This document shows positions 1,510 to 54,888 of a stretch of 64,000 nt of DNA, piece by piece (position 1 is the stretch's first letter; each line of letters begins with the position of its first letter). The position numbers and the translations under genes were made by a program. Under the pieces are notes generated by a model. It was given only the letters and a program-made list of their open reading frames with translations, was not told where the DNA came from and did not search any database. The DNA comes from Euryarchaeota archaeon UBA552 (lineage in GTDB: Archaea > Thermoplasmatota > Poseidoniia > Poseidoniales > Thalassarchaeaceae), in assembly GCA_002499585.1 (NCBI GenBank), contig DAMH01000011.1, forward strand, positions 15,195 through 79,194, read 5' to 3'.

Positions 1510-4386
1510 ATGGACGGTGTAACCAAGGTACATGGAGCCACAAGGCTTCAGGTCACTGCCATCGTAATGGTGTTCATATTCCAACTTGGTGCAGCCCCTG
1601 TTACATACCTATCGAATGAGGCGCCCGAGGTGATGGAGTCAACCCCCTCCAACCAGATTGAAACCTACTCTCTGTACCTCTCCACCGGGAACAACCTGTC
1701 AACCGTTCTTCCTGATGAGGGCGGGCAGTTGGAATCCTCAGCACTTGACACCACAGTTGAGTTCACAACGGGAGACTTGATGCAGTCGCTGGTCGTGGTG
1801 GGAAACAAAAGACAGAATTCGGATGGCTCCAGCCAATACTACGTACCCCTCAACATTTTCCTCAAAGCCGAGGGGCCCCAGAACTCAATCGTAACTTGGA
1901 CATTTAGCATAAAATCAGGAGGTTCCACTGTTGCCACAGGAGAACTCGAGAATGAAGCATGCTCGGGCTTTGGAGGGTGTGATTATGAACACGAGGCCAT
2001 TGATATCTACATCTCAGGTCAAACCAGCACAAATTCATTTTCAGTATCAGAGTCCGACGAATTGGTACTTGCAATCAGGGCTGAGATGAGCGGATGCGGT
2101 GACGGGGGCTTCTTCAACGACTGTGAAGCAAATGTGGCCTTCAATCAAATCAGTGGAGACAGTAGGTCCTCTCTTATCGACATAAGCACAAATGCTGTCT
2201 CGGACACTGTCTTCTTCGTCCAACGCCCAGGAGATGAATTCATCGATGGCGCAGTCACGGATTGGTACCCAAACGACGTGATTACGGACCGAGAGATGCA
2301 GTTTAGTTTTGACGTGAAGAGTGCATTTGGTAGGAAGGATATCGAATCGGTGGAGCTGCGACTCCGCAACACTGAGAGAAACCAAATCATACTACAACGG
2401 GATCTAAATCCCGAATCCCAAGATATCGAGTGGACTACTGAGGGCATGTTTGGGCGTGTCAAGTGGACCTATCAAAGTGGCTTGGAGTCAGGGGCTTACG
2501 AGGCCGAGCTTAGGGTTTCAGACGTCCAATCAAACACCTTTACCATCACACATGAGACCCTGACAATGAATGAATTCGGAGTATCCTTGAAACACTCTGA
2601 AGACAGGTCAGTGGAGTATATCGCTCCTGGGGCCATTACCCCAGTTCCGCTCCAATTGATACACAGAGGCGATGCTACGCTGTCGATGAATGTGGAGTTG
2701 CAACTTCTGACCACACTGGGCTCAGACTGGTTAGTGGAGTTCGACAGCCCCGGGGGCTATACCATGAATTCCGGAGGGACCATTCTAAGTCCCATCATGA
2801 CCATAACGGCGCCACTCGATCTCAGTTTCGTCCCTCCAAAGATAAGAATCCGAGCGATTGGGGATGCGGAGGTGGGCGGATCTTTCGAGAGTGTTTCAGA
2901 CACACTCGTGCTGGACATCGAGAAGTTGCAGGTATATCAGCCGCCCTCCGTGGCCCTCTGGGACTACGAAAAAGAGACCCTCATTGCAAATTCTTCGATC
3001 CCGCAAATAGACTCCGGAGTACCGAGGTACGTTGAGAACGGGGAATTTAACCCATTTTTAATGGAGGTTTTCAACTCAGGATTCACCTCGGATTCTTTCC
3101 GGATCGATGTGTTGGAAAGGTCAAAAGCCATCATTCAGCTCTTCGATAATGACACAGGCCAAAGAATACTCGAAGATGACGACGACGGGACATTCCACAC
3201 GAAAGCCCTGGATCGTCACAACACACAATCAATAAGACTCTCAATCAAACCGTCAGGGGACAGATCAGATCCTGATATCGGCCTTATCCGACTGGAGGTG
3301 GCTAGCCTGAACAACAGCTCATTGAAAACAATCGTGGAGTTTACGATCCAAAGGACCTTTGGAATCAGGGCTGAAGTCTCTCAAGATTGTGATGGAGTTC
3401 CCTTGGGCTTCATTGAAACCGGCGACTGTACCTCCAATTCGATGAGGATTAGAATAACCAACAGCCTCTCAGGGGAATCGGGCCAGGCAACATCATGGCT
3501 CATAATTAATCCAGCATCGTTATCTGAGAACACGGATCGAAATCAGGCCTACGGTATCTGGACATACAACATAATTGACAGCGCTGGAGCCAATGCCCCC
3601 AAAGTTACACTGGGGCCGGATGATTTCATTGAGATCTTCATGACCATAGAGATGACCTCACAGGTGGTGCAAGGCAATCACACTGTGTACCTCAGAGTCA
3701 AGGAGGACGTCACGTCCGGAGAAGACGAAGCACGCTACTTCGATCTGGCAATAACACTCAACGTAAAGGCCGACGACCCACAGCTTGAACTCGTGCAAGT
3801 TACGTCCAACAGAGGCATCGCCCCAGGTGACGAATACGCTTACCAGATAAAAGTCAAGAACAAGGGGAATAGCCCACAAACTGTTCTTCTTTCTGCGAAC
3901 GTGGATGAGCAGGGGTGGAGTGTGGAAGTTGAGGGGCCATCCGGCTCCCCTCTTGTAGAAATTGCCCCCTTTGAGGAGTTAACCTTCAGAATCAGGGTCA
4001 CCTCGCCATCTGACGCCAACAATGGCGACAGAGTACCCGTTAGGGTTGAGGCAAGTCCGTTCGCAACCGACAAGGCATGGCCCGAGGAGTACACTGCTAA
4101 GTTGACTCTGACGATGGTCGTTGACATTTCGTCGGTAATAGACCTCCTGATGAACGAGGTCATGCATCCCCGTGGGTCGACCATCGTAGTTCTTGGGATA
4201 GCCCTGCTCCTACTCTTCGCTGGATTCCAGTCCAGAAACAGCAGGAGAAGAGTAGCAGCCCAAATGGCTCTTTTGGATGCATTGTCTAACGAGATGAATG
4301 TCCAGCCCGTGGTCGAGGAAGAAATCGGTGAAATACATGATGAAAGCCCTGATTATGATATCGATGACGACATCGAGTTAGTTTGA
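1510..4386 (+). CDS. Large membrane-anchored surface protein (958 aa) with CARDB-like domain, C-terminal TM helix and acidic tail
   Basis: Hydrophobic N-terminal segment LQVTAIVMVFIFQLGAAPV. CARDB/DUF11-like stretch YQIKVKNKGNSPQTVLLSANVDEQGWSVEVEG. C-terminal TM IVVLGIALLLLFAGF followed by basic residues (SRNSRRR) and the acidic tail EEEIGEIHDESPDYDIDDDIELV. Lies 58 bp upstream of the 2977-aa gene on the same strand, so probably co-transcribed. Confidence 0.6.
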   Translation: MDGVTKVHGATRLQVTAIVMVFIFQLGAAPVTYLSNEAPEVMESTPSNQIETYSLYLSTGNNLSTVLPDEGGQLESSALDTTVEFTTGDLMQSLVVVGNKRQNSDGSSQYYVPLNIFLKAEGPQNSIVTWTFSIKSGGSTVATGELENEACSGFGGCDYEHEAIDIYISGQTSTNSFSVSESDELVLAIRAEMSGCGDGGFFNDCEANVAFNQISGDSRSSLIDISTNAVSDTVFFVQRPGDEFIDGAVTDWYPNDVITDREMQFSFDVKSAFGRKDIESVELRLRNTERNQIILQRDLNPESQDIEWTTEGMFGRVKWTYQSGLESGAYEAELRVSDVQSNTFTITHETLTMNEFGVSLKHSEDRSVEYIAPGAITPVPLQLIHRGDATLSMNVELQLLTTLGSDWLVEFDSPGGYTMNSGGTILSPIMTITAPLDLSFVPPKIRIRAIGDAEVGGSFESVSDTLVLDIEKLQVYQPPSVALWDYEKETLIANSSIPQIDSGVPRYVENGEFNPFLMEVFNSGFTSDSFRIDVLERSKAIIQLFDNDTGQRILEDDDDGTFHTKALDRHNTQSIRLSIKPSGDRSDPDIGLIRLEVASLNNSSLKTIVEFTIQRTFGIRAEVSQDCDGVPLGFIETGDCTSNSMRIRITNSLSGESGQATSWLIINPASLSENTDRNQAYGIWTYNIIDSAGANAPKVTLGPDDFIEIFMTIEMTSQVVQGNHTVYLRVKEDVTSGEDEARYFDLAITLNVKADDPQLELVQVTSNRGIAPGDEYAYQIKVKNKGNSPQTVLLSANVDEQGWSVEVEGPSGSPLVEIAPFEELTFRIRVTSPSDANNGDRVPVRVEASPFATDKAWPEEYTAKLTLTMVVDISSVIDLLMNEVMHPRGSTIVVLGIALLLLFAGFQSRNSRRRVAAQMALLDALSNEMNVQPVVEEEIGEIHDESPDYDIDDDIELV

Positions 4387-4444
4387 CCAGGGTCCGAACA
4401 ATGCTCCATTCCTCTTAAGTGCCCAACTAATTGGGGAACTAACA

Positions 4445-7400
4445 ATGCAATCAGTCCAGGGCATCGCCGATAAGCGATCCGCAGTTCTACTGGTCGCATT
4501 GATGTTGATGTCATCGCTGGCCATTCTCCATATCGGAACGATGAGGGCCGCAGCATCTCTGGATGCCGATGGCGACGGGCTGGCCTATGGATTGGAGTTT
4601 TACATCAACACCCAGCCACAAGACTGGGACAGCGATGATGATGGCCTACCTGATGGTTGGGAGTGGAAATACGGGCTGGACCCGCTTTCTCCTAACGACC
4701 TGAATGGCTCAACCGGGGATCCAGATGGAGATCTCCTTACTAACCTCAACGAGTATCTATGGGGGATCCCTGCTGGTTGGGACGACGTATCGACCCCAAC
4801 CGTGCTCGACAACGGCGTCTGGTGGAACGGAACCGTTCCTGTCAGCGATTGGGACGAAGAATCCGCAATGCAGATAATACAGGGAAATGGTACCGATGGT
4901 GCCGATGAAGATCCTGCTGGGAATATATGTACGAACGGCTTTGATGACGACTACGATGGTTTAGTTGACTCCGCAGATCCTGATTTCGACGGCGACGCTG
5001 ATTGCGCATCCAATGATGACGATGGTGATGGTTTAATCGATGAGGATGTGGATGGCTGGGACACAGACGGCGACGGTATGGACGACGGCTGGGAAATCGC
5101 ATTTGGTCTGGACCCCACTGACGGTACTGGGCAAGACGGAGCCTACGGGGACCCCGATAATGACGGGTTGCTCAATCTATGGGAATACGTGAACCCCGCG
5201 TGGACCACAAGGGACGGCTCTACATTCCCGCCAACTCAGTATTTCCAGCCCGGGCCCGACATCGGTACGCAAACAGAAACCCCTTGCGACCCCGTTTTGT
5301 CCCTGGGGCCAGGGGGATGCGCCTTCCTTACCGCTGAAGTCGACTCGATAACCTTCACCGATCCATTTTCCAATGACACCGATGGCGACGGTCTCAATGA
5401 CTCGCGAGAAGCGCTGGTCCTCCTAACAGACCCTACATCAGTCGACACAGATAGGGATGGGATACCAGATGGTATCGAAGTTAACGGCAGCTACGGGAGC
5501 CCACCGCTTGCTTCCGACCCTAGGAACAACAATACAGATGGGGACCCGTTTGACGATGGTGTCGAAGACCTAAATTTCGATGGGGATGTGGACCCCGGTG
5601 AGACGGACCCAACAAGGATTGAGGATGATGGCGACGAGGATGAGGACGGGATTCCAAATTACATTGAAAACATAACATGCACCAAGTGGGATGTCCCCGA
5701 CACAGACTTCGGAGGGATAGACGACGGAACGGAAGGAGACATCCATGGTACAGATCCATGCAAGAGTGACACCATAGTAAACAGAACAATCACAGACTTC
5801 GACCTAGCCTTGCTCCAGATTACTCTGAATTCAACGGACGGAATTCCATCAGGTCCGAATTGGAGGAACCCAGAACAAATGTTGGGCATATATGTGACCT
5901 CCGATGGCTCAAGAACCCCTTTCCGTTGGCTCAGGATCGACAATCTATCAATCGATCAGATAGAACCCCCGCCCCCAAACAACACTGTCTGGGTGAATGT
6001 CCTCAACGGCTCTTGGTGTTGGAACAATACCGCGGGGGCGATCAACGACCCATGGTGTGATGACGACTATGCCGACACAGACGGTGATGGACTGGCAGAT
6101 TGGGAGGAGACACTTTCGACATACGGCTACTTCTCAAACCCGCTTGCAATCGATACAGATTCAGACGGCGTCGACGACTGGACTGAGGTATGGCTGGACG
6201 GAACAGACCCCGGTGAGCCCTGTTCGAACAGGCTAGACACTGATTCTGATGGACTCAACGACTATTTCGAAAATACAACAGGTTGCGATTTAACTTTCGC
6301 AAGTAACCTTTTGACCAACGGATCCACAGACGGTTGGGTCACACTGTGGAATGTCTCAGACACCGACCAGGGAGGGGTAGGTGACCTTGGTGAATATCTT
6401 GATGGGACCAACCCCCAAAACAACCCCTCAGATGACATGAATCCGTTGGACACAGATGGGGATGGCGTCCCTGACTTGAACGAGGAACAAGATGGCACGG
6501 ATCCGCTGGATCCAGATTCAGATGGCGACGGCATTCCTGATGGAGAAGAGGCTGCCCTCGGCCTCGACCCGTTGAACTACTCTTCGGCCTTTGATCCGGA
6601 TCAGATCATTGTCACGGGATTCAACGAGGGTGGGACCGCCAACATATCTGCGCCCCAATACTACAGGTGGTACACCTTCGACGAGTATCTGAACGGTTCA
6701 TGGGGGCTGAATCAATCTTCGTATGGATTGACGCAGATCCTCCTGGAGGAGGAAATATCATTGGGAACAGCCGATGTTTCTGTTTGGGGTGGCAACACCC
6801 ACTCATGGCAGATTAATTACTACGTCCCAGGTTTCGCTCAACCAGGAAAACATCTCGTTCTTCCACACAACACACTCAGCTTCAGCAGCCTCGTTCAACC
6901 AGATGCCTCTCTAAATTTGACGAACAGCACTCGGGATGTGATAGTCGATAACAACATGATCGAATCGCTGTTGATAGAGGCTCCAGATTACAATGTCTCT
7001 GCGGTCCAAAAACAGGAGTCATTACCAAAATCTTCGTCTGCGTACGGGCTCTACTACCCCCTGACAAATGAAACGAACAGAACCGCATCAATTTCCAGCG
7101 AGGTTATCTCTCAGGCCGGCGCCTTTTCCGCCTGGGAGAAAATTGAGGCGATCTCAAACTTCCTCACAAACGGCAATGCCACTGTGCAATTTCAATGGTC
7201 AGCATCAGGATCTGGATTCAAACAGCAAACAGGATCAGAAAATGGGCCAACTGACATCTCGACGTGGATCCTAGACTCTGCAAGGATAGGATCATGCGAC
7301 GAGTACGCTAGCACATTCGCTCTAATGCTCCGCACCGTAGGCATTCCAGCAAGGAAGGTCACCGGGTTTGCGGGAGGGGTCCAAGATCTAGATAGCAATT

Positions 7401-10400
7401 CCGTCTCCTTCTATGGTCGACACTTGACCTCCTGGGTCGAGGCTAACCTACAAACCAACGAAAACCTGGGGGGGATTGACCTGGGATGGCAGCCTTTCCA
7501 GGCATGCCCGCCGCCGCCTCCATTATCGCTAATCGAAGTGGTCAGAACAACTGGAGAACATGACCGCGATGGGTCCGACCAACTCTTCTTTGAGGCCAGA
7601 CTGGTTTACACTGAAAACGGAACACCTGTAAGCGACTCTCCGGTAAACGGCCATCTGATACCACAGTCCATTGCGACTGAAAACTCCTTTTACACGGCGC
7701 TTTCGAGTTTCGGCACGACTCAGACGAACGAAACCGGGTGGTTCAGAATCAACTCCAATGTGACCACGATGAGTTACCCTCGCCCGGGACTTGCAGTGTT
7801 CGTCATCGAAGTTCTGGGCGTAAACTCTGCTCCATACTCCTTGTTCACAAGTACAGGCGGAATCGCACAAAGCCCCAGTTTCATGTGGGGTCTGAACTTG
7901 TCGGATGACCCTTCGATTTCCTTCTTGAGCCCCCTGCCGACTTCCTTGCCTCCTGTGGGAGCAGGCGTCACAACCGATCTTGAGGGGCGGTTCATGTGGG
8001 AGAACCTCGACCTATCGGACCCCAGTGACCTGGATGACGAAATTACAGGCGCCTCGGCCTTCACTTTGTCCCTCGAATACACCACTGTGTCTCAAGGGAC
8101 GGTCAATCTGACAGCAAATGTGACCGATCTAGGCTTCTTTCAGTTTCCAGTCACTGTTGATGAGAATGAACCGCTTGGCCCTCTAAACGCTAGGGTTTGG
8201 TTCTCAGGGTGGCGCGAGGACGGGCAAGACCTATCCTCAACACCTCCCCATTTAAGGCCAAAAGGCATGAATTTCCAAATGAATGTCACACTTGCACCCG
8301 ATCTGGCGATCACAATGGAGGGCGGCTATCAGAACGCCAGCCTGCTGGGTATCAATGAGAACGTATCAATCAACGGTTCCGCCCTCAGCAGAGGTGGCAC
8401 CCCCGAACCAATGAACGGCACCCTGTTCATGGACATCCGTTCGGCTGCCTCGACAGGTGACTTCACGTCAATCACCTCTTGGTATCTAAACGACTCTGCA
8501 TGGGCCTCACAGGCCGGATTTTTCCAAATCACATGGAATTTCTCCGAAAACAGGGTGCCCATTCCATCGGGCTTGGTCGATGTCAGGTTTAGATACCTCG
8601 CTGATGGTTTGTCTGCCTCCGATTTCGAGATATTCGACAACGAATATGGGATATACGGGTACCTGAACTTCGACTACGCTCTCGAACCTTCCCTGAGAGG
8701 TGTTGAGACCACACTGCAGGTATCGGTAACTGACCATACAAATACCCCTCTTCAGCCATACTCGGGTGCCTTTACGTTGGACTATGATGGTGCACAGTTA
8801 TGGTCGCAGAACGGGTCGCAGACTTCAACGCTTGATGTGACATGGACTCCCGGATCAGGCGTTAGCGTCCCACCGGGCGACTACACTTGGGTGCTGAACT
8901 ACTCCGGATCGCAATATCTCAAACCCAGCTCGGTAGTTGATCTGCACCGTCTGCAGGCAGAGGCACAGGCCACATGGTCTCTGGATCGTGATTGGTTTCA
9001 TCGAAACACCACCGGCTGGGTCAATGGAACACTGGTAGACTCGATACTAGGCACCCCTGTTTTGGGTAACAACACCTCTGTGAGGGTCGACATCTCTGTG
9101 CCAGACACATCCGATTCAGCGGACCAGAGCCAGGGAACAGTGCAGGTACCTTTCACACAAGGTTGGTTGGACACCGCCAGTGGGAACTTCTCAATCCAGT
9201 TCACAACCCCTCTGAACCTCCGGTCTTCTGTCTATGAGTTACAGATAAACTTCGATTTCCTTCAAGGCCTTGAGGATGAGGGCGGCGCATACTATGTCAT
9301 GCCATTCGACGGGTCGCTCTTTTCCTCAATAGGTATAGAGACTGAGTTTGTAATCACCCCTGTGAGCGCCCAGGTAGAGGTAATTGCAGGTGAGGATTTC
9401 GAAGTTGCCGGCCTTGTGACTGATGTCTCGGATAATAGTCCAATTGCCGACGTCGAGGTTTCACTTTGGCTCGATCTCTCTGGTTTGAACGAGACAATCC
9501 TCGGTTTCGGAAATTCCTCATCGGACGGGACAGTGACCTTCAACACAACAATGCCGTCTACAATACCGCCGGGCAACATACAACTTACCATGATCATACA
9601 GGATGACCTGTCAGACAGCCTTGATCAGGAAGACCCCTCAAGAAGAACTGGAAATGATTCCCAGATGGATGCTATCGTGATAGTCCCGAGTGGGATTGCG
9701 ATCGATTCATCCCCCCCTTCTGTCGTGGCCGGTCAGAGCTTCACGGTCACTGGAAGGGTATTGGACGCTGTGGACAACAACAGAACTGTCGATGGCCCGA
9801 TGGCCCTTCAGGTCCGCTTCCTCAACGACGAAAGTGAAATTCTGGTCCAGAGTGTTTTATCCGCAGACAATGGCTCATTTTCTCTGGTCGTGCCAACAGA
9901 TCCACAAATGGATGGCGTGTCCAGCGGAAACAAGACATTGGTCATATCAATCATAAACGGCTCCACGCCATTCTACCTGACATCATCAGCCACGACGGAC
10001 ATCCTCGTAGTCGGAGTCACAGACTTCGTACAAACCCAACCCTCTACCTCAACCACTGTCGATCGGGGGGAATCCGTTTCATTCTCAGCTGTTTTGGTCG
10101 AGTCCTCAAATAGCGACGCGCCCATAGTCGGTGCAGAAGTCGCTGTCCGATTCCACCATACCTGGATCACACCCGAGATTACTTCGAACAACGGCTCAGT
10201 CATATTCCAATTTGGGGTGCCAAATGACCACCCTCTGGGACTCATCGAGATAAAATTCCAATTCAACGGCTCCACCGTCCTGTTAGCGTCAAACTCCTCG
10301 ATATTCAGGCTAACAGTCAGGTCTGACACACAATTGGTCATAGACCCCATCTCAGCCAATCCGACAGCAGGTGGATCCTTCGAGATATCAGGCACCTTGT

Positions 10401-13378
10401 TGAGTGGGAACGGCTCATCGCTCGTAAACAGAATCGGCTCGTCGCTACCGGTGGGAATTAATTTCCGACTGGACGGCTCAGACGATGGTTTCGGTCTGAA
10501 CTCGTTTTCGATAGCAACCAATGGGACGTGGAGCGTCAGGATGGTGCTTGATGGAGACACACCCAGGGGAAGCCATCTGGTAGAAGCTGTCTATTTGCCC
10601 GCTGTCCCCTACTTTTTGCAAAGCGAAGGCGCCGCAACCTTCGACAGCAGAGGATTTACTGCCACCACGGTAATCGATCCGCTGGACCTGGATCCAGATG
10701 GAAGAACCGTCCGAGGAGAAGACGTCACGATAAACGTCTCACTCATCGACAATACTGGGGATCCAGTTATCGCTTCAACAATCTCATTCTCCGTCAATGG
10801 ACAGTTCAATGGCACTGCGACGACAAATCAAGAGGGCATAGCAAGCTATACCCTGACTATAGATGACAAAACCAAACCAGGTTTCATGGAGGTAACCTCT
10901 ACTTTCCCCGGGCTCGCTGGGACCACAGGCCTCTCCAGCAGCACGGACACCGTGAGGATCGTGGTTTTAGCCCCAACAACAATCGATATCACATCGGTAT
11001 CCGGTACCGGAATAGCAGGGGAGAATCTTACATTCACAGGGACCCTGCTGGATGAACACGGATCCCAACTGATTGATTCAGACACACCTACCGCTGGGAT
11101 AATCCGTCTATCGGTGGATGGAGTTTCAATGGGTCCTGAATTCACTGTATTGAGTAATGCGACAACCGGTGAGTGGGAAATCACTATGACAATTCCCCTC
11201 GATGTGGTGTACGGATCACACAACGCGACCTTCGAATTCCTAGGCGGATTCACATGGGTGGACCCCATGGGCCAGGGCGATTCCCTGAATCCTGAGTTCT
11301 ACCTTCCGTCGAACTCGACAGTCGAGTATAATGCCACCCAGAATTCTCAGGTCATAATAACAACTCCTCCAACCAGTGTTGATAGGAACGACCTCTTGCT
11401 CATTGAGGGCAGAATAACCGACGGAATCGGACGTGTCCTTCCCGGCAGGTCGGTCTCTATTTCGATCGAAGGCAACTTTGTCACAGACTCAGTTGCGGAC
11501 AACGAGGGCAACTTCTCAGTATTCCTGCCAATTCCTTCTGACATGGAATTAGGTCCGAGAGTTGTCCGTGCAGCCTTCCTCGGAGAGATCTTCGTCCTGC
11601 CATCAAACGGTAGCACTGTTTTCACAGTTTACGCTCCTACCACCATATCGCTCGACCAAATCAGTCCTGCGGCTGTCGGAGATAAGATATCGATAACGGG
11701 GACCGTGAGTGACAACCTCCCTGGGGGTTTCATTCCCAACCACACTGTTGAGTTGGCTGTAGATGGCGTGTTCATCGGAGCCACGCTGACAGATCAAAAT
11801 GGGTCCTGGAACTTGCAGTGGACAGTTCCGGATTCCCTCGAGGTTGGGAATCATACGGTCAGAGTCACCGTGCCCCAACAAGGATATTACAGGGCGAGCA
11901 TGACCGAGGAAACACTCTCAATCGCATATCACACATCAATATCGCTCGAGATAGCCCAGCCTTCAGTGACCCGCGGGGATTCATGGATCGTCACCGGGAG
12001 GTTGTATGACGATGATACGATAGGCTCACCGGGCTTAGAAAACAGGGATCTCCTGGTTCAACTGGATGGTAATCTCGTTGCCGCTACGGTCACAGGGGCC
12101 AATGGCCTGTTCTCTCTCGAGATTCCAGTCGAAATTTCCGCCGCAAGGGGAGAGCACCTGATATCCATACAATACGAAGGTGAGACCCTGTACCTCCCTG
12201 CCACATCAAATTCATCTGTTATCGCCAAGTCGAATGTGGAGATTCAAGTCATATGGTCCGACGCCAGCGTCATCAGAAGTGACCCCAACAATCCAATCAA
12301 GATCGAGGGGAGGGTCCTAGAGGTAGGGGGAGATTCCGAAATCATCCGTGATATCGACGTTACCCTGTCGTGGAATGGCCAGGTCAAGCCCTCAACGCTG
12401 AGATGGGACGATTCAACCGGCCACTTTGAAATCGAGGCTCCATCGCTCGCCTCGTACCCCCCGGGCAACCTTGAGATGACCATCACCGCATCACCCCCTG
12501 CATCCCTATTCATGAATGAGGGCAATGTCAACTACACGATTTTGATGAGGGTGCCTGTTTTCTTCAACTTCGAACCTTCGTCATTCATCATATACGATGG
12601 CATCAGAACCATCGAAGGTAGAACGATTGTCACCGCCCAGGACACAAACGAGTTTGTAGAGGGGGTTGCGATAACAGCAATCCTCGTCAACAACACAGGG
12701 GCTGTGTTTACAGTCACAAAGGCGACGGATTCTGAAGGAATTGCAGATTACTCATTTTCAACTGAAGACCCAATACCTGAATTCTCTCGATCTGGTTATT
12801 GGGGGGACTTGAGCATAGAATTCAGCACCGACTCCGAGATCATAGATCCACAAGACAGAATTTGGCTAACAATCGCGCATGGAGGCCTGAACATCACATA
12901 TTTCGTCGAGGACTCACCGCTACTTAACCAACAGACCCTGATCATCGTATCGATTTTCAGCATCATAGCCCTCTCCACTTTGTTCTACTCGCGGCGAAGG
13001 AAGGCAAAGCGGCTCCGTGAGTTTTCAAACATATTTGGCTATGCAGCAGAACTACTCGCCGCCGGGGACGAAATAAGGGAAGCCATCTTCAACTGCTACG
13101 AGGGTTTGGTCTCTGTTCTGCAAAAGAGAGGGTTTCTCAGAAGAGACTTTGAGACTGTGAGGGAGTTCGAGGTTGCAATTAGGAAAGCCCTCCCGATACG
13201 GGAAGAGGCCCTAATTTCCTTAGACAGAGTCTTCGAAGAGGCCCGTTATTCGTCACATGAGCTTGGAGACTCAGAAAGGGCCCGCGCTAAGGCCGCACTA
13301 AGTGATGTATTGAGGGCAATAAGTGAGATGCAGGATGTTCCAGATAGGTCGGCGGAGTTAATCGAAGATGACTACTAA
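4445..13378 (+). CDS. Giant surface protein (2977 aa): signal peptide, acidic calcium-binding (thrombospondin type 3-like) repeats, transglutaminase-like core, tandem Ig-like repeats, C-terminal TM and DUF4129-like cytoplasmic domain
   Basis: Signal-like N-terminus [24 protein letters not shown]. Dozens of DxDxDGxxDxxE motifs ([37 protein letters not shown] and others). [30 protein letters not shown] plus downstream [10 protein letters not shown] and DLGWQPF fit the transglutaminase-like Cys-His-Asp core. About twelve ~90-aa repeats follow (ITGTVSDN..., IEGRITDG..., [11 protein letters not shown]...). Then TM [17 protein letters not shown] + RRRKAKR and a cytoplasmic tail with a TPREY-like motif (FETVREFEV), resembling DUF4129 of TgpA-type proteins. 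Confidence 0.75.
   Translation: [2977 protein letters not shown]
4560..6600 (+). repeat. Coding region packed with acidic calcium-binding (thrombospondin type 3-like) repeats in the 2977-aa protein
   Basis: Recurring Asp-rich motifs D-x-D-x-DG-(L/I/M)-x-D-x-x-E and GWExxxGLDP throughout aa ~40-720 of the product. Confidence 0.6.
7180..7530 (+). other. Transglutaminase-like (cysteine protease fold) core domain inside the 2977-aa protein
   Basis: [27 protein letters not shown] holds the candidate catalytic Cys. [12 protein letters not shown] holds the His. [11 protein letters not shown] holds the Asp. Order and spacing match the transglutaminase-like superfamily. Confidence 0.6.
9350..12780 (+). 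repeat. About twelve tandem ~270-bp coding repeats encoding Ig-like / carboxypeptidase-regulatory-like beta-sandwich domains
   Basis: Periodic motif of the form G(D/E)x(F/I)x(V/I)xGx(V/L)xDxxGxP(V/I)...V...(V/L)...G...(T/S)...G.(F/W)(S/N)....P, recurring roughly every 90 aa from [27 protein letters not shown] to [24 protein letters not shown]. Confidence 0.55.
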
Positions 13379-35123: not shown

Positions 35124-35198
35124 GCCACTGTGGCTTAGGGGTATAGCGTCGCCTTGGTAAGGCGAAGGTCGGGGGTTCAATTCCCCCCAGTGGCTCCA
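35124..35198 (+). tRNA. tRNA-Thr (anticodon GGU), CCA encoded
   Basis: Acceptor GCCACUG/CAGUGGC. Anticodon stem UCGCC/GGCGA with loop UUGGUAA (anticodon GGU). T-arm GGGGG-UUCAAUU-CCCCC. Discriminator U, then CCA. An A9 tract follows. Confidence 0.85.
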
Positions 35199-35252: not shown

Positions 35253-38200
35253 ATGTCCTACGCCAAGGCCAGACGCGCCATCATCATGACAGCCCTCATG
35301 CTTCTGCTACCCACGACCCAGGCTAATGTCGCAGACTGGAGGGGGCCAGACGTGGTGAAGCCCGGTCCTGATGGCTCGGAATTTACCGCCTTCAGAGTCC
35401 CAACAAATGCAACGATCGTTGACAGCTGGGTTGAGATCTCAAATGACGACACCGCCCAGTCCTCTGCTGATTTGCTCTCATGGTCGATCGAAGATGGATT
35501 GAGGTCTGGCATTCGGAGTGGAACCTCTTTCAGCTCATCTGGGGAGCTAATTCTGACAGATGACTTCACAGTCTCAATAGTTGATGATTTCGATGAAGGT
35601 AACTTCACAATAGAAATGCCAAATGGATATTACCATTCTCCGGGGGTGCTCAGTGTTTACAACATACAAGAAAGCACTGCGAACCCGAATTGTAACAACT
35701 TGTCCTCGATAACTGTATCACAAGGACACGACTTTGACGATGATGGCTATTTGGACGGCCAGGAGACAACCTCCTCCGTTGAATATTGCCCCTCCTCTGG
35801 ACTGGACACCAGCATAACCTCCCTCAACATAACCGCGGGCGGAACCGGATATGGGAACGGTAACCTCACAGCAACTGGCGGCGGAGGTTCTGGATTCGCA
35901 GGTACTTACATCTCCGGCAGAGAAATCGCTTCAGCAACCTTGAATGCCGGCGGTTCAGGCTACACCAGTGGGACCGTTTTCAATGTGGAGTGCGGCAGAG
36001 ACTGTACTGGATCCGGTGCGACCGTGACAGCTACCTCGGTAGATGCAAATGGGGCCATAACTGGCATATCACTGACAAACAGCGGTTCAAACTACACAAC
36101 CGAACATGTACTGACCCTAGTAAACACCGGTGCCTCTGGGAGGTTGGCGGACATATCCGTGACTCTCAACAGTACAGGGGAAATAGTCTCCGCGGACATA
36201 ACCTCCCTGGGGACTGACTACACCAGCCCCCCTTCAATCGTCATCAGCGGCACAGGCAGTGGCGCTGTCATAACCCCCGGGCTCGGCGGATTCTTCAATT
36301 GGTTGGCTGAGCCCCATCCAGACTCCGCCACCAACGCTTCTTGTCCAGAAGGCGGACACGTCATCGATCTAGGTCAAGATCTAGACAATGACAATGAGTT
36401 AGATCCCACTGAAATAACCCAAAACCTAACCCTCTGCCACAATCCAGACATCGACTATTGGTCGTCGGTATTGGCAGAGAGCATAGATGGAGATGTGTAT
36501 CTGGACCAGAAGAACCTGACTCACGGAGTCGTGCCCGCAAAGGCGGCGGAGGGCAAGGTAATGGCCGCAACCCTGCCCGGAACAGCCGTTCCTGCAGGCA
36601 CGGACACATCCCTCTTCCTTCCCCCGATGGAGGTTCCGGCTGACGACCTCCAGATCGGTTACACGCTATCATTCCAACACTGGTATCACGTAGACAGCAC
36701 CTCAAACGGAGGAGGAGATGGCGCCTGGGTTGAATACAGGCTCATGAACGGCACTTGGGGCAACTGGTCTTACATCGAACCAACCGGGGGATATCCGAGC
36801 ACACTTTCACCAGATGGCCCATCCGTCGATGGGCAACCTGCAGGAAATCTTCCAGTGTTCGCTTCGGAAACCCACAGCGGATGGGTATCGAACGACATAG
36901 ACCTGACTACGATACCCCAGATACAGGATTCTGACGAGATCCAGTTCAGATTCAGACTTTGGACCCATCCTTCCGCTCAGAATCTCAGGCCCGGGTGGTA
37001 TCTGGATAACATCTCCTACCAGAACGTTGGAGGAACAGATGGCGGGTGGCTCCACGGGTGCGCTTCCCCTGCCGGCACAACATGCCTGTACAGCAACTAT
37101 GCATACGGCGCGCTCCAAACCCAGTTCAGCACTCAGGGTACGAATTCGGCTTCAATCGTCAGGGTGCATCTTGAATATGACCTAGAGGGCTCCTCATTCG
37201 ATAATTTCTGTGTCGAAATGTCCTCGAACAACATAACATGGACAGACATTTCGTCTGCGACTTCCGCGACTACTCAAAATTGTGAGGACAGGTCCGGTGC
37301 AATACCCGGATCCACGGGCGATCAGAGCGGTGGCCTAATCATACAAGATTACCCCCTCCCGTCCCAATTCACCAACCAGGCGAACGTACATTTGCGCTTT
37401 ATAGTAGATACAGATGGATCGGTAGGCTACGGAACTCCACAGGATAACTTCGAGGGCCTCTTCATCACCGACGTGTCACTCGTCACACCAGGGACTTCAG
37501 TACATTGGTCCGACGATCTAGGGTCCTCGACCACATTCTTCCATTACGCGGCAACACCTCCCAGCACATCGTTTGGAGGGCCCACCGATGACTGGAATCA
37601 CATTCAGAGATTCGGCGGAGTGATAGATCAGGTACTAGGTTTCGAGAACTCCTTTGCTACGCCCCCTGAGTCTGAACACGCCTCAGGATGGAGCCACTCT
37701 GGAAGCACTGGCGGCACCACATGGGAATACGGGTTCCCAGGATCAAGCCTTACCCTGGAAGAGCCAAACAGCTTCCCATACCTATACGGCACGGACTTGA
37801 ACGGAGAATATCTGGACAATTGGAACGGATATCTCGAATCTCCGCAATATGACATCCCTACTTCAGGGGCCACCTTGCAATTCGCGAAGTGGGCCTGCAT
37901 GGATCAGTTCGATTCAGACGGAGCTGTTTTGCAATACAAGGTAAATAACGGAGGCTGGCAGTATTTCCAACCTTCAATACCAGGTTGGTATGACGGGGTG
38001 AAGACTTCATGGAACAATCCCTTCGGGACAAATGAAGTGTGGTTTAACGACGATTGTGGCCTTGATGAGATGTCCTTCAGGGAAGCCCCCCTGGACCAAT
38101 GGGGAGGAGAAACGATGACCTTCAGATTTTGGTTCCAATCAGACACATGTTGTCAAAGCTCAACATGGGCAAACGATGATTTCGAGGGATTCTACTTGGA

Positions 38201-41200
38201 CGACTTCGGGGTGCTCATTCCAAATTACAGTTCAAACGGATCATGGTTGAGCCCCGATATACAACTAACCAATCACGATTCCTTCAACCTTGGTTTCCTC
38301 GACATCGATGCTGAAATCCCAGAGGGCACCCGGGTACTTGCTTCGATAATCGATGCAACAACCATGATACCGGTCGACGGGTATCAGATGAGGTCCCTCC
38401 CGCTCTCAATGGCAGGAATAAACCCTGTTTCCAGTCCCTCAGTGAATGTCCAGCTACATTTGGAGACCGTTAACTCCAGCCTCACTCCTGTCATTAAATC
38501 AGTTAGATTAGACGGATTCAGAACCCTTTCGGCAGATTCTGGCGAAGGGAACGGATGGGAGTTCAGTCCAAGCTTGGTCATAGAAAATGGGGAGATCGTA
38601 ACCACAGGGATAGCAGGTGGGATCGATTCTGACTTCGTTACATCATCACGGCCGATCAAAGCAGTAACAGTGAGTGGAGACTATTCCGGAGTCACGCTCA
38701 GTTTCAAGGACGCAAATGGGGCAAACCTCGGACCGCCATCAGTTACTGGGGGATTGGTAGAATTCCCCTGGTCCCAGCCCGGCTTCAGAGTCGATATCTC
38801 CCTATCCCCGACCGGATACATAAATCAACTCAACATCTCTGCGAAATTTACCGAGCCCGCTAAGTCCCCAAGTTTGGACCTTGGGTCGGATGGCACCGAT
38901 GACTGGTTATTCCCGTTCGGAACCTCTTACGGACATCTGGGCTGGCAGTCGATGATCGATTCTGGTACTAGCACTAGAAGCACAAGCCTGGTGCTCGACC
39001 CATCAAACCCATCCACAGTACCTGTTATCGTCCCAGCGGGGTCATCGACCGATCCAAACCTTGATTCGACATCTTGGGTCGTATCGGGTTATCTTGCTGT
39101 GTCTCCGGTGGGAGCAGATACCCTGTTGTCTCCAGTTACGCTATCAATTGGGAGTGCATCGGTCACCACCTCCGGAACCGACGAGGGCCCAAAATACCTA
39201 CACCTCACCGGGCAGATGATTTCTGAGATAAACGCAGTTCAGACTTCTATCGAAGATACGGTTGGTAACAGGAACTGGAAGCTACTCGGATTCGAGGTAT
39301 CATCGTCGACTCAACAGGAGATTTCCATTAGCACCCTTGGGCTATCTTACTACCTCCACGAGAACTTTTCGTCTCTACAGGATATTGTTACGGCGTCAAT
39401 GGCTGCAATCCAGTCTAATTCATCCGACACGAACATTCCGTTTTCTGTTTCCTCCGACGGTGGGATGATTTCAGTCGGCGGGGGCGCGTACTATGATTAC
39501 ATTACCACCAACTATCCATTTACGCCTCCCAACACATTTGTTCCGAGAGGCGATCATTACACGCTCTACACTGAGCACAGCCACCTCTATGATAACGGAT
39601 TGATCTCCTCAATCAGGCTTGTTGGAACCACGGAGGAAGGAGATACTGCCATTTTCACGGCGACTACCGAGGGAGGCGACTGGAGCGATTCCGCTTCGAC
39701 TACTTTCCAACAATCTGGAAACGGAATCCCCGGAATTAGTCTTGTCGAGATTGAATCAAGCGTGGATGTTGTAACGGACGAAAGTGGGTCGGAAAGATTG
39801 AGAGCAAACTGGTCAATAGCTTCAACATGGGGGCCCGATGACGTTTCAACAATATCCTGGTCATCAAGTGCCGTAGACACTGACGGCCAGACGAGATGGA
39901 GTGCAGATTCTTCAAGTGGAGTCGGAGGCAGGTCGGCATATGAAAACGATCTTGAAATAGAGTCATTTACCGTCAGGAACCATCTTGGGAATTTGGTTTC
40001 GGATCAGTTTTCATCCATGTACCCCTTCCCTGTCGACCCCGGTAACAACCTGTTCATAGAAGGCTCTGTCAGGTTCGAGGGCTCTCCCGATCTGAGGCCC
40101 GATTCATCTGACTTCCTAGTGAGTGTCAACCTGTCTGGAACCTCCGTTGCAATGACATCCGGGGAAGATGGAAGTTTTTACGGGGAGTTGACGATTCCAC
40201 TTGGAACTCCGACTATCTCGCTTTCCCCTGTGATAGATTCCATAGGTCCGAATAATCAGATTGTTGGAGCATACGATCTCACAATCGACCATCCTGTCAT
40301 CAATGCGATCGTGGATCAGGATCCGCCCATCGCAGGCCCTATTCAGGTCCTTACGCCCCTCGGCTTCCAAAATGCTGCAGGGAAGATAGTCGGCCCAGAT
40401 GCACCCCTCACGGTTTACGTCACAGTCTCAGACACGGACGCCAGAGATTCTGATGTGACGCTGCGATATTGGCGATCTGGAGTGGATGATGCGAATATGG
40501 ATGGCATCCCCAGCCAAGATGAATACGAATCCATTACCGCACCACTAGCAATTGGCTTCTCAGGCGAGGAGCAAAAGGACTTCACCGGGATAGACCTCTC
40601 TGGAGTACCCTTCAATAGTCCCGTTTACATGTACATAGAAGGAACTGACTGGTCAGGACGAAGTTACCAAAGTGGAGGCACCGGCGGTGGCCCGGGAGTC
40701 GATGAGGCCTGGGCGACTCTGCTTGTAGCAGAAAACGTGGAGACTCAGATACTTGGTTCTGGTTTCGCTCTTGACAGGGCCTCTGGCTACCTCATGCCGG
40801 GCATAGAACACACATTCACGATGGTCATCGACGAGCCAAATGGAATCAGGACTTTGGACGGCATAGATTTGATGCTGTGCGATGACGGGCCAACTGGCTT
40901 GGGCAAGATGCACTGGAACCCCGCCGAGCAAATCCTCACTTCCCCGGATGATTCGTACTTGACTCTGACCGGTGCCCGGGCGACTCCCGTGCAATCAGAC
41001 TCGATCCTTTCTGTTGAGATGGATTTCATACTTGATTGGGACTTCCCATGGACTCCTGGGGACGCCCTGTGCAGCCCAAGAGTAATCATTACAGACGATC
41101 TACAGGTTGCTGCACAATCATCTTTGTTGACAACATTGTCATGGGAGTTGGACAACCAGCTGGAGGCGATTCCAAACTCGGCTTCGGACCTCACTCTGCC

Positions 41201-42458
41201 GATAGGGGAGAGTGATTCAACGGGGATCTATCTCATGAAGGGCGACTCCTTCAGTGTTAACGGCACGGTTGTGCACGCAGGATCCGGCATCCCATTCGAC
41301 ATGGACGCTGGAAATACGATGGTAGACGTCTTCTTCGTCTATGGATCTGAGCGAGTCAGTTCTGTGGCCTCGATAGGCCCGGCAGGACACTGGGCCGTTG
41401 AACTTACGCTGCCCGACAGGCCACCAGTATACCCTGTAATGGAGATCGGAACAAGCGTGATCGATCCTCCGGGCGCTGGGGGTTCCCTTGGAAACAATGA
41501 TATCTCAATTACAGTAGACTCGGCTGCACCCACAATATTGTTCGATCAGACCGCATACCCAGACAGCTCACTTTCTGTGGAGGAGTCCGATGAATTGGAC
41601 CGTGTGAAAATAACCCTTCAAATCAATGACGCCGTAGGCATGCAGCAAGGCGACTTAGAGGTAGCATGGGTCTTCAAAAGAGGCGGTGATGTGATAAGTC
41701 AGGTTTCATTTGGATCGATTCCGCTAATTGCTGATCAACCACAGTTTGACATATATCAAGGCGAAGTCGACATGCACCAATCTCTAACCACCACGCTGAT
41801 AGATGGCGATTACGCAGAGTTTTGGGTCGTCTCCACTGACCGGGCTGGCAACCAAGTCAACGGACTAGGAAGCGAGTCTTTGCCCAAAAGGGTCGATGTG
41901 CGAATCATGGAATTCCTGCCGACGCTAACCAACGTTGTTTTCGACCCGACAGATAAACCACTGCCGGGGCAAAGAGTGACCGTTAAGACATTCTGGTCGA
42001 ACCTTGGCAAGAGGGATGGGACACTTTCCCTATCACTCTGGCAAAACAACGGCGGAGAGTCGTGGTCCCAATCCCCTCCGGCTGACGATATCGAAATCCT
42101 TCTGGCCGCGGGCTCTACTAGCGTAGTGGTGGATTTGATTTACGAACCAAGTCTTCCCGGCCCACAGGTCCTCTATGTCATAAATCAGGGAGATTTTCAA
42201 AATCTTGGATACCCTGTGGAGGGAATGATCGTCTCATCAGCCGACATAGACAGCGTTTCTGAAGGAGATTCTACATTGGCATACACCTTGATCGGAGCAG
42301 CCGCCTTGATAATAGTCGGAATAGGTGCATACATGGTCAAGACTGGATCTGGCAGAAGGGACGATGACTACTACGAAGATGAGGATTTTGAGTACGATGA
42401 CGACGAGGATTACGAGTACGATGAGGACGGGTATGACGACGAGGAACAAGACGATTAG
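35253..42458 (+). CDS. Giant surface protein (~2401 aa): signal peptide, degenerate ~42-aa GxGYT repeats, three MAM/LamG-like lectin modules, C-terminal TM and Tyr/Asp/Glu-rich tail
   Basis: The ORF as drawn starts at 35154 inside tRNA-Thr. The first sensible start is the ATG at 35253 (MSYAKARRAIIMTALMLLLPTTQA signal peptide). Repeats GGTGYGNGNLTATGGG, GGSGYTSGTVFNVECG, GSNYTTEHVLTLVNTG, GTDYTSPPSIVISGTG. Three modules end in GWYLDNISYQN, GLFITDVSLV and GFYLDDFGVL, the C-terminal strand signature of MAM/concanavalin-like domains. C-terminal TM LIGAAALIIVGIGAYMV, then RRDDDYYEDEDFEYDDDEDYEYDEDGYDDEEQDD. Confidence 0.7.
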   Translation: MSYAKARRAIIMTALMLLLPTTQANVADWRGPDVVKPGPDGSEFTAFRVPTNATIVDSWVEISNDDTAQSSADLLSWSIEDGLRSGIRSGTSFSSSGELILTDDFTVSIVDDFDEGNFTIEMPNGYYHSPGVLSVYNIQESTANPNCNNLSSITVSQGHDFDDDGYLDGQETTSSVEYCPSSGLDTSITSLNITAGGTGYGNGNLTATGGGGSGFAGTYISGREIASATLNAGGSGYTSGTVFNVECGRDCTGSGATVTATSVDANGAITGISLTNSGSNYTTEHVLTLVNTGASGRLADISVTLNSTGEIVSADITSLGTDYTSPPSIVISGTGSGAVITPGLGGFFNWLAEPHPDSATNASCPEGGHVIDLGQDLDNDNELDPTEITQNLTLCHNPDIDYWSSVLAESIDGDVYLDQKNLTHGVVPAKAAEGKVMAATLPGTAVPAGTDTSLFLPPMEVPADDLQIGYTLSFQHWYHVDSTSNGGGDGAWVEYRLMNGTWGNWSYIEPTGGYPSTLSPDGPSVDGQPAGNLPVFASETHSGWVSNDIDLTTIPQIQDSDEIQFRFRLWTHPSAQNLRPGWYLDNISYQNVGGTDGGWLHGCASPAGTTCLYSNYAYGALQTQFSTQGTNSASIVRVHLEYDLEGSSFDNFCVEMSSNNITWTDISSATSATTQNCEDRSGAIPGSTGDQSGGLIIQDYPLPSQFTNQANVHLRFIVDTDGSVGYGTPQDNFEGLFITDVSLVTPGTSVHWSDDLGSSTTFFHYAATPPSTSFGGPTDDWNHIQRFGGVIDQVLGFENSFATPPESEHASGWSHSGSTGGTTWEYGFPGSSLTLEEPNSFPYLYGTDLNGEYLDNWNGYLESPQYDIPTSGATLQFAKWACMDQFDSDGAVLQYKVNNGGWQYFQPSIPGWYDGVKTSWNNPFGTNEVWFNDDCGLDEMSFREAPLDQWGGETMTFRFWFQSDTCCQSSTWANDDFEGFYLDDFGVLIPNYSSNGSWLSPDIQLTNHDSFNLGFLDIDAEIPEGTRVLASIIDATTMIPVDGYQMRSLPLSMAGINPVSSPSVNVQLHLETVNSSLTPVIKSVRLDGFRTLSADSGEGNGWEFSPSLVIENGEIVTTGIAGGIDSDFVTSSRPIKAVTVSGDYSGVTLSFKDANGANLGPPSVTGGLVEFPWSQPGFRVDISLSPTGYINQLNISAKFTEPAKSPSLDLGSDGTDDWLFPFGTSYGHLGWQSMIDSGTSTRSTSLVLDPSNPSTVPVIVPAGSSTDPNLDSTSWVVSGYLAVSPVGADTLLSPVTLSIGSASVTTSGTDEGPKYLHLTGQMISEINAVQTSIEDTVGNRNWKLLGFEVSSSTQQEISISTLGLSYYLHENFSSLQDIVTASMAAIQSNSSDTNIPFSVSSDGGMISVGGGAYYDYITTNYPFTPPNTFVPRGDHYTLYTEHSHLYDNGLISSIRLVGTTEEGDTAIFTATTEGGDWSDSASTTFQQSGNGIPGISLVEIESSVDVVTDESGSERLRANWSIASTWGPDDVSTISWSSSAVDTDGQTRWSADSSSGVGGRSAYENDLEIESFTVRNHLGNLVSDQFSSMYPFPVDPGNNLFIEGSVRFEGSPDLRPDSSDFLVSVNLSGTSVAMTSGEDGSFYGELTIPLGTPTISLSPVIDSIGPNNQIVGAYDLTIDHPVINAIVDQDPPIAGPIQVLTPLGFQNAAGKIVGPDAPLTVYVTVSDTDARDSDVTLRYWRSGVDDANMDGIPSQDEYESITAPLAIGFSGEEQKDFTGIDLSGVPFNSPVYMYIEGTDWSGRSYQSGGTGGGPGVDEAWATLLVAENVETQILGSGFALDRASGYLMPGIEHTFTMVIDEPNGIRTLDGIDLMLCDDGPTGLGKMHWNPAEQILTSPDDSYLTLTGARATPVQSDSILSVEMDFILDWDFPWTPGDALCSPRVIITDDLQVAAQSSLLTTLSWELDNQLEAIPNSASDLTLPIGESDSTGIYLMKGDSFSVNGTVVHAGSGIPFDMDAGNTMVDVFFVYGSERVSSVASIGPAGHWAVELTLPDRPPVYPVMEIGTSVIDPPGAGGSLGNNDISITVDSAAPTILFDQTAYPDSSLSVEESDELDRVKITLQINDAVGMQQGDLEVAWVFKRGGDVISQVSFGSIPLIADQPQFDIYQGEVDMHQSLTTTLIDGDYAEFWVVSTDRAGNQVNGLGSESLPKRVDVRIMEFLPTLTNVVFDPTDKPLPGQRVTVKTFWSNLGKRDGTLSLSLWQNNGGESWSQSPPADDIEILLAAGSTSVVVDLIYEPSLPGPQVLYVINQGDFQNLGYPVEGMIVSSADIDSVSEGDSTLAYTLIGAAALIIVGIGAYMVKTGSGRRDDDYYEDEDFEYDDDEDYEYDEDGYDDEEQDD
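35830..36270 (+). repeat. Four degenerate ~126-bp coding repeats (GxGYT-type) in the N-terminal region of the 2434-aa protein
   Basis: Protein-level periodicity of ~42 aa with G-G-(S/T)-G-Y-(T/G) cores, rich in Gly, Ser and Thr. Confidence 0.4.
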
Positions 42459-46636: not shown

Positions 46637-46662
46637 ATCCGGATTTTCCACAACGCTTTGAA

Positions 46663-51774: not shown

Positions 51775-51858
51775 TCGGGCCTCGTTGCCCCCCTACGCCC
51801 AACGGTTATATCCGGGGGACAGCGGAACAGGAGCAGCCTTGTCGCGGGGAGGGCCACT

Positions 51859-54800
51859 ATGCAGCTAAATCACAACCAGTATGCCATCGGCGCAATAGTC
51901 GCAACTTTGTGCTTGGCCGGACTCTACACTGTAGTTGACGCAATGCTGAGCACCAGTCAAACGGTAGGTTACTATGAGCCTGCAGCGGACGACATCTTCC
52001 TAGATGAAGACGAAGAGCAAATCACTGGCGAAGACTCCGACGGTGACGGAATCCCCAACAGGATGGAAGAAACACTGTACGGCACGAGTAAACTGTCACC
52101 TGACACCGATGGCGACGGGCTCGGTGACGGCTGGGAGATCGAGAATGGATTGGACCCACTCGACAGTGGAGAGGCGAGAATAACAGAACTGACATTCGAA
52201 AATCCAGATGCAGATTCTGAGGCGGGCGATCAAAACGAGACTTTCCCAGACCCGGACAATGGTCCTAACGGTGACCCCGACAGGGATGGCCTCACAAACA
52301 TCGAGGAGGCTGAAATCGGAACCAACCCTAGTGTTAGAGACTCTGATGGTGACGGACTGAACGACCTTTGGGAGTCTCTGTACTCGATCGAAATAACCGT
52401 ATCCGGATCTGAATCGTTTACCTTATTGGACCCCCTAAATCCAAACTGGGACTGCCCACTGCTAACTGCAACGAAGAAAGCAGAATTGGAACAAGCAATC
52501 GGCAGCAGTATATGGAAGGAGCTCGCCACGGGCCCCTTTGGTGAACATTCATGCGATGCCGTCCTCGACCTTGAGCCATCAGGCGGAGATACCCTTCACA
52601 ACTATCTCGAAGAACAATATTCCACCAACCCCCTCTCCGATGACAGCGATGAGGACCTGATACCCGACAGGGTCGAGGTTGCATTCGGCATTCAATACCT
52701 GGATGTGAGCTGTGGCCGATTCACTTTTTCGGTTGTAACAAAAGATGCACCCTACACTTCTATGATGACCGACGCCAACGACCAATCTTGGTTCTCTGAG
52801 GACATGGATGGCGATGGCAAGTTCAATGGGCCGGGAGATTGGGACACCGATGGTGACGGAATGCCCGACGGTTTCGAATATTGCTATGACGACACACTCG
52901 ATCCACTAAGTCCCACAGACGCCTATGGGGACCCTGATCAAGACGGCCTCAACAACCTACAGGAATACGAAGTTGCTTACACTTGGGGCCCAATCAACTT
53001 CACCAGCCCCTCGTCAAGCGACACTGATGGTGACAACATGCCTGATGGCTGGGAGCACCTGAATGGAATCAACCCCCGGGATGGAATGAACGGAATTGAA
53101 GACCCAGACATGGACGGTTTCGATTCCGATGGTGACGGTTCCGTATTCTATCGCGATCTGGTTGGCGTTTCAACAGTACAATCAATCTCTGTAGAAATTG
53201 GCGATTTCGTACAGAAAAACCAGACATTAATTTGGATCAGGACTGTTCAAGATCTGGCCTACATAAACATCCCGTTGAAAGCCCATCAAGATGGTTTCAT
53301 TTACGATATTAGCATAGAAGTCGGAGAAGAAGTCGAACGGAGAAGCCAATCTCTGATGACCATAGTCGAAGGCCATGAAAGACTGACAAACCTCGACGAA
53401 TATGAGGCCAGAGACCTCAACAAAGACGGAATCGTCGACGGCAGATCAACGAATCCCATGAATCCAGATACGGATGGCGACGGACTAATTGACGGTATCG
53501 AAGTGATCGGGTGGACAATAAGGATCGTGGATGGCACGGCTCGAGATATCAAAGTCAGGAGTGATCCAGGAGTTTTCGACTCAGATGCCGACGGCCTTTC
53601 GGACTCCGTTGAATATTACACCACATACACAAATGCCACAGACAGGGACACCGATAGCGACGGAATTGAAGACTTCACAGAGGCTATGGACGGTTTCCAG
53701 TGGAACGGCTCGGTCTATTTCACAAATGCATCCAGATTGGATAGTGACAATGATGGATTGGACGACAGAGAAGAAGTAATCGCCGGACAGGATCAATATG
53801 TCACAAATGCATCAGACATCGATAGCGATGATGATGATCTGAAAGATGGCTTCGAAGTTTTGAATATACCCCGGCCATGGCAAACTGCTACCAACCCCCT
53901 AGATCCAGATACAGACGGAGATTTACAGCCTGATGGCTGGGAGATGCAAATCACCTCGGTGGAGGATGACACCGTCAGTCACAGTCTCTGGATAGCCCCC
54001 GATAACTGGCTCCCGCCTGGGTGCCTATCCTTGATCGAGTGCGGAAGAGGCCCAGGCGGGTGGATATGGGACAACTATCTTCAGGGCTTCTCATCTTCCG
54101 GAGACCCCGACGGGGATGGTAAACTAAACCCCACATATTCATTCTCAGAACTGAATCTCACTGGATTCACGATACCAGACAACGGTAGATGGGCATTAGA
54201 TCCAAGTTTCGGCAGTCTCCCAGATTCATCGTTTGATGCAGACAACGATTCCCTGCCAAATTTGATGGAAATTCCCTCCAGATGGGATACAAACCCAGTC
54301 AAGGTAGACACCGACGGGGACCTCCTGCCAGATGGCTGGGAAGTGACATACAATGAATTCGCTGTTACTTACGGGAACATCACTCTTTCTGTGACTGAAA
54401 GAGGCCCCCTCGATCCAAAAATGATAGATTCTGACGGAGATGGAATAAACGACGGATCCGAAGACCTTGACTCAGATGGTCTGAATGTCATGCACTTGAT
54501 GAACAAATACTGCCCAGGGTGGAACGATCCTCAGAATTCCGCGTGCCACATAGACCCTTCAACACCAAGCGGATCAATATTTTATAATGATCTTGGAAAC
54601 TACACAAACTACGAAGAGTACCAGAATGGGACCCACCCAATTCTGAATGACACAGATGGAGATTTGTGGCTCGACGGAAGCGAGGTTTACCATCAAGATC
54701 AGGATGACGACTCGATGTGGAGTGGCTGGGAGTACTACTTTGGTTTGGATCCGTTCGATCCATCTGATGCTACTATAGACTCAGACGCGGATGGATACAG

Positions 54801-54888
54801 CAACAAATGTGAGAACAAATACAACACGAATCCATTGAACCCACTTTCATTCCCAGGGCAGGGAGAACTATGCAATCAGTTCGACTAA
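51859..54888 (+). CDS. N-terminally anchored surface protein (1009 aa) rich in acidic calcium-binding (thrombospondin type 3-like) repeats, with an embedded biotin/lipoyl-like barrel motif
   Basis: N-terminal TM AIGAIVATLCLAGLYTVV. Many DxDxDGxxDxxE repeats (DSDGDGIPNRME, DTDGDGLGDGWE, DTDGDNMPDGWE and others). Internal segment VEIGDFVQKNQTLIWI...INIPLKAHQDGFIYDISIEVGEEVERRSQSLMTI fits the barrel-sandwich hybrid pattern. Confidence 0.65.
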   Translation: MQLNHNQYAIGAIVATLCLAGLYTVVDAMLSTSQTVGYYEPAADDIFLDEDEEQITGEDSDGDGIPNRMEETLYGTSKLSPDTDGDGLGDGWEIENGLDPLDSGEARITELTFENPDADSEAGDQNETFPDPDNGPNGDPDRDGLTNIEEAEIGTNPSVRDSDGDGLNDLWESLYSIEITVSGSESFTLLDPLNPNWDCPLLTATKKAELEQAIGSSIWKELATGPFGEHSCDAVLDLEPSGGDTLHNYLEEQYSTNPLSDDSDEDLIPDRVEVAFGIQYLDVSCGRFTFSVVTKDAPYTSMMTDANDQSWFSEDMDGDGKFNGPGDWDTDGDGMPDGFEYCYDDTLDPLSPTDAYGDPDQDGLNNLQEYEVAYTWGPINFTSPSSSDTDGDNMPDGWEHLNGINPRDGMNGIEDPDMDGFDSDGDGSVFYRDLVGVSTVQSISVEIGDFVQKNQTLIWIRTVQDLAYINIPLKAHQDGFIYDISIEVGEEVERRSQSLMTIVEGHERLTNLDEYEARDLNKDGIVDGRSTNPMNPDTDGDGLIDGIEVIGWTIRIVDGTARDIKVRSDPGVFDSDADGLSDSVEYYTTYTNATDRDTDSDGIEDFTEAMDGFQWNGSVYFTNASRLDSDNDGLDDREEVIAGQDQYVTNASDIDSDDDDLKDGFEVLNIPRPWQTATNPLDPDTDGDLQPDGWEMQITSVEDDTVSHSLWIAPDNWLPPGCLSLIECGRGPGGWIWDNYLQGFSSSGDPDGDGKLNPTYSFSELNLTGFTIPDNGRWALDPSFGSLPDSSFDADNDSLPNLMEIPSRWDTNPVKVDTDGDLLPDGWEVTYNEFAVTYGNITLSVTERGPLDPKMIDSDGDGINDGSEDLDSDGLNVMHLMNKYCPGWNDPQNSACHIDPSTPSGSIFYNDLGNYTNYEEYQNGTHPILNDTDGDLWLDGSEVYHQDQDDDSMWSGWEYYFGLDPFDPSDATIDSDADGYSNKCENKYNTNPLNPLSFPGQGELCNQFD

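Follow-up and report, generated by a model that had tools for sequence, protein, structure and literature searches.

The window, that is, the whole 64,000-nucleotide stretch of DNA analysed here, comes from a Marine Group II (MGII, Poseidoniales) archaeon that is MGIIb-like, and it carries five giant ORFs, G1–G5, of 958, 2977, 2008, 2434 and 1009 aa as listed. These sizes and the positions agreed with those of the original prediction, except that the start of G4 was corrected firmly and that of G3 probably. With the refined starts the five genes total 27,765 nt (43% of the window), which matched the approximately 27.8 kb predicted. The annotation of the flanks also bore out that the giants are interleaved with core housekeeping genes: these archaeal genes are SDR, XPD, HD, GDH, PurC, Rpo7, DtdA, ProDH, RtcB, ACAD and AlaRS as well as those of an aminotransferase and of an IMPDH-type enzyme. 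All five giant families are uncharacterised.

G1 (1510..4386, forward strand), a 958-aa type-I surface protein according to its ORF, Pfam matches and homologues, begins with an N-terminal signal or anchor (1537–1611) and contains a single Ig-like FixG_C/NPCBM_assoc domain (about 3820–4065), while most of its ectodomain is otherwise without domain annotation in Pfam. None of its 455 homologues, which show 50–83% identity, is named. The TM helix (4177–4227) and the 52-aa cytoplasmic tail (4228–4383) occupy 4177..4383, and the tail consists of a basic cluster, a juxtamembrane helix (QSRNSRRRVAAQMALLDAL), an acidic linker and a conserved C-terminal end, DDDIELV (4363–4383), whose family form is YDDDDIEL[VI]-COOH. 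Identity reached 80% in the terminal 10 aa versus 38% in the linker and 54% in the ectodomain.

In G2 (4445..13378, forward strand, 2977 aa; supported by ORF, Pfam and orthologues), all of the domains proposed earlier were confirmed. The signal peptide (4445–4555) is followed by TSP3-like calcium-binding repeats (about 4562–6577) with 13 strict DxDxDGxxDxxE motifs, by a transglutaminase-like core (Transglut_core, 7196–7498) with Cys951 and His993, and by an Ig-like/Big_3_5 region (about 10718–11908, Pfam). The MGIIb copies have Gln where the canonical catalytic Asp is expected and the His is missing from two of the three distant orthologues; judged from these alignments, the triad of the transglutaminase fold is incompletely conserved across the family. 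The C-terminal part (12935..13375) comprises the TM helix (12935–12988), an RRRK cluster and a cytoplasmic DUF4129 domain (about 13094–13300; 36.4 bits in Pfam, cut-off 24.8). G2 contains 76 N-glycosylation sequons and is collinear with the L166 orthologue (46.5% identity across 2998 columns), to which the tail is 66%, the ectodomain 42% and the TM helix 17% identical. Across about 30 loci the tail proved to be strongly conserved.

Bacterial TgpA-type proteins likewise have an extracytoplasmic transglutaminase-fold core with conserved Cys and His and a DUF4129 across the TM, and the nearest solved relative by sequence is PDB 6g49. TgpA has several N-terminal TM helices, whereas the 2977-aa G2 has only one TM, TSP3 repeats, Ig arrays, Gln at the Asp position and a triad not conserved across the family.

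G3 lies on the reverse strand. Its listed ATG at 26945 overlaps the Rpo7/E′ gene (26863–27411), the similarity to orthologues starts near the GTG at 26636, and the orthologues are 1902–1903 aa long; the alignments thus place the start probably at this GTG, which gives a protein of about 1905 aa (20919..26636). The gene callers' version of G3 has 1936 aa. Downstream of the signal (26544–26636), an FG-GAP repeat head (FG-GAP_3 in Pfam, about 24900–25922) and a stalk of CARDB, Fn3-like and NPCBM_assoc/FixG_C beta-sandwich domains (about 22185–24833) were identified. The predicted combination of FG-GAP and CARDB was thus recovered by profiles, FG-GAP in the form of repeats, for which a seven-bladed propeller is a putative fold. 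The TM helix (21174–21224) and the 84-aa cytoplasmic tail together span 20922..21224, and in the tail a basic/amphipathic juxtamembrane stretch and a variable linker precede the invariant terminal motif D-x-F-E-x-R-L-x-R-L (20922–20957). With its FG-GAP head, Ig-like stalk, one TM and conserved cytoplasmic motif, G3 recalls the layout of the integrin alpha chain, which ends in a short conserved cytoplasmic tail; however, G3 lacks the GFFKR motif and a beta-subunit, and the PDB contained no integrin with detectable relatedness in sequence. The likeness is purely one of architecture.

With the listed TTG as its start, G4 would overlap a tRNA-Thr gene (35124–35198); together with the orthologues, this overlap indicates that the true start is the ATG at 35253 and that the protein has 2401 aa (35253..42458, forward strand). 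The signal peptide (35253–35324, MSYAKARRAIIMTALMLLLPTTQA|N) has an AxA-type cleavage site and is conserved in orthologues. It is followed by a ‘GSGY’-repeat region, which is confidently all-beta, with DUF7151 (about 35652–36434), and by tandem jelly rolls of MAM/CBM/reelin type (about 36597–38444); the other approximately 1300 aa of the ectodomain have no annotated domain. The predicted MAM/LamG modules stood in part: MAM-type jelly rolls were supported via orthologues and fold search only, the MAM match of the window protein itself being under the Pfam threshold, and no match to LamG was found in G4. Among the best fold matches are the InhA2 metalloprotease (its MAM-like domain), a carbohydrate-binding domain from a chondroitinase and xylanase CBMs. 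Ectodomains with MAM, reelin or CBM jelly rolls (InhA2 peptidase, receptor phosphatases mu and kappa, reelin, neuropilin) are a candidate likeness, but G4 has no peptidase, phosphatase or EGF module and is an archaeal type-I protein with a D/E/Y tail. The TM helix (42276–42338) and the 39-aa tail lie at 42276..42455; the tail consists of KTGSGRR and a D/E/Y-rich segment, corresponding to R[GS]R[GS] and DDYYY..YYE..WEYE in orthologues, while in some lineages it is replaced by a tail of 93 aa or by one with EF-hand+SAP. G4 is syntenic at nearly all MGIIb loci (35–42% identity). Its tail, with a column identity of 20%, is conserved in composition but not in position, and might thus serve to provide charge or spacing instead of docking a partner.

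G5 (51859..54888, forward strand; 1009 aa, 15% Asp; ORF, profiles and orthologues) has an invariant N-terminal hydrophobic helix (51880–51948), and hydropathy revealed no C-terminal TM in it. Both of its predicted features were verified: TSP3-like calcium-binding motifs (12 strict, 25 loose) matching TSP3_bac are spread over the full length, and a barrel-sandwich-hybrid (biotinyl/lipoyl-like) domain lies at 53137–53370. The AlphaFold models of G5 and of the N-terminal part of G4 had modest confidence (mean pLDDT 57.5 and 60.7, respectively), for which reason the fold matches are read at the domain level only. Repeated DxDxDGxxDxxE motifs and export are shared by G2 and G5 with the TSP3_bac proteins CglD and MtsD of Myxococcus, and both match the TSP3_bac, CglD and MtsD models along the repeats. 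The CglD/MtsD-type matches reached 60–95 bits versus equivalog cut-offs of 400–800, thus G2 and G5 are not orthologues of these proteins. Moreover, CglD and MtsD belong to a bacterial lipoprotein or outer-membrane context, while the window proteins have archaeal TM helices; G5 adds the barrel-sandwich-hybrid, and G2 the transglutaminase-like core, the Ig array and the cytoplasmic DUF4129.

Topology was judged by hydropathy and the positive-inside rule. G1–G4 have an N-terminal hydrophobic signal and, as predicted for four of the five proteins, one C-terminal TM helix with a basic cluster directly after it, which implies type-I topology with the large N-terminal part outside and the C-terminus inside. 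An N-terminal export signal is present in all five giants, G5 having only its conserved N-terminal helix. N-glycosylation sequons are two to eight times denser in the giants (0.63–2.55 per 100 aa) than in the housekeeping proteins (0.31), and the domains of cytoplasmic type, DUF4129, EF-hand and SAP, were positioned only C-terminal to the TM. The sequences consequently support the view that G1–G4 are extracellular, membrane-anchored proteins of ordinary type-I layout. The acidic tail claimed for these proteins was found in G1 (14 D/E and 4 K/R in 52 aa) and G4 (23 D/E, 6 Y and 3 K/R), but not in G3 (19 and 22 in 84 aa) or G2 (26 and 23 in 129 aa).

Considering these results, the five ORFs are genuine genes, and we think it probable that they encode surface proteins specific to the MGII lineage and passed on vertically, which also engage cytoplasmic partners. 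The giants would enter the membrane through Sec and become N-glycosylated, seawater Ca2+ may stiffen their ectodomains, and G1–G5 together might make up a large share of the protein coat that the cell exposes, where the ectodomains would attach to polymers, to particles or to other cells. The calcium-dependent adhesion toolkit proposed earlier is retained as such a reading, although the idea is not new, since an adhesion role of thrombospondin-type genes in MGII has already been put forward (Rinke et al. 2019, PMC6461757). The presence of an own conserved cytoplasmic end in each family suggests a connection from outside to inside rather than mere sticking. The higher identity of the G2 tail and of the G1 terminus compared with their ectodomains indicates selection on the tails. 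If these ends dock family-specific cytoplasmic partners, the proteins would be transmembrane linkers or receptors, not passive anchors. The four proteins probably have no common C-terminal sorting or processing signal.

It is possible that the giants are mainly structural, forming an S-layer-like or glycocalyx scaffold around a wall-less archaeon with G5 as the core calcium-bridged lattice or spacer, a view compatible with the explanation above. The full-length identity of G5 across MGIIb is 60–67%, which is the level of RtcB and AlaRS, its N-terminal helix is invariant, as are many DxDxDG motifs and cysteines, and this housekeeping-level conservation fits a structural role better than a diversifying adhesin. 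G1–G5 are also near-universal in MGIIb at fixed positions, the largest sequence clusters of these proteins have up to 1205 members, and crenarchaeal S-layer proteins likewise combine a signal peptide and a large glycosylated ectodomain (glycosylation being predicted for the giants) with a C-terminal TM anchor (PMC8559796). However, none of the known S-layer proteins proved similar to the giants in profile and structure-database searches, and MAM/CBM, FG-GAP and TSP3 are typical ligand-binding or adhesion modules.

Capture or processing of substrates for protein and polymer degradation by MGII, with jelly rolls that bind polysaccharides or proteins and a transglutaminase fold acting as surface protease or cross-linker, seems unlikely. 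The fold matches of G4, the catalytic Cys and His of G2 and an S8 subtilase gene near G4 would favour it, but profile searches recognised no hydrolase catalytic domain in any of the five proteins, the triad of G2 is not conserved, and the S8 gene adjoins RtcB also in MGIIa loci without G4, hence it is not linked to G4.

The original prediction also envisaged a distinct, possibly shared mode of anchoring or trafficking. In its strong form, the TM, basic cluster and acidic tail would be a new sorting, processing or trafficking signal served by one dedicated machinery, similarly to PGF-CTERM and archaeosortase. The gross layout is indeed common to four of the five proteins, and G1, G3 and G4 even have the same order of TM, basic cluster, juxtamembrane stretch, acidic linker and conserved end. 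Nevertheless, the helices are generic, conservation is lowest in the TM (16–17% identity in G2 and G4), the tails vary from 39 to 129 aa, one being a folded DUF4129 and some in the G4 family EF-hand and SAP, and neither a motif common to the tails of different families nor a signature ahead of the TM was found in these proteins. In 2.5 Mb of MGII DNA, no terminal motif occurred outside the family to which it belongs, and an exhaustive search of 1.84 billion proteins with the G1 TM and tail returned G1-type fragments only and no other ectodomain family. The claim that this is neither a PGF-CTERM nor a sortase signal held on direct reading of the sequences and in the profiles, the NCBIfam sorting-signal models giving no match to the giants even at E up to 1; unlike euryarchaeal PGF-CTERM/ArtA substrates, G1–G4 have no PGF motif or terminal-only basic cluster, and their tails are long and conserved. 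A shared signal is thus very improbable. Type-I layout with family-specific tails is common in MGII, being present in 80 of 811 complete ORFs with a length of 250 aa or more, among them further families that have tails of their own.

That the giants result from faulty assembly or annotation, for instance as chimeras or collapsed repeats, or constitute a variable island gained by horizontal transfer can practically be dismissed, in spite of the two wrongly listed start codons and the MGIIa loci without G4 at the syntenic position, because 22 contigs of independent assemblies (ENA, JGI, Tara, Logan) encode an identical G2 protein, orthologues are collinear and full-length, GC is even and the flanks are conserved. 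The ORFs are consequently real and not chimeras, a concern raised at the outset, and the term ‘island’ is contradicted by the uniform GC (0.47–0.54) and by the constant positions that G1–G5 occupy between housekeeping genes, both in related genomes and on metagenome contigs. The RtcB loci examined were all of MGII, with G4 and G5 syntenic there, and the order G2-XPD-HD-GDH-PurC-o207-G3 is kept in relatives. Other assemblies contain proteins that match G1, G4 and G5 at 100% identity, and the G1–G2 tandem is kept in a 51%-identical relative.

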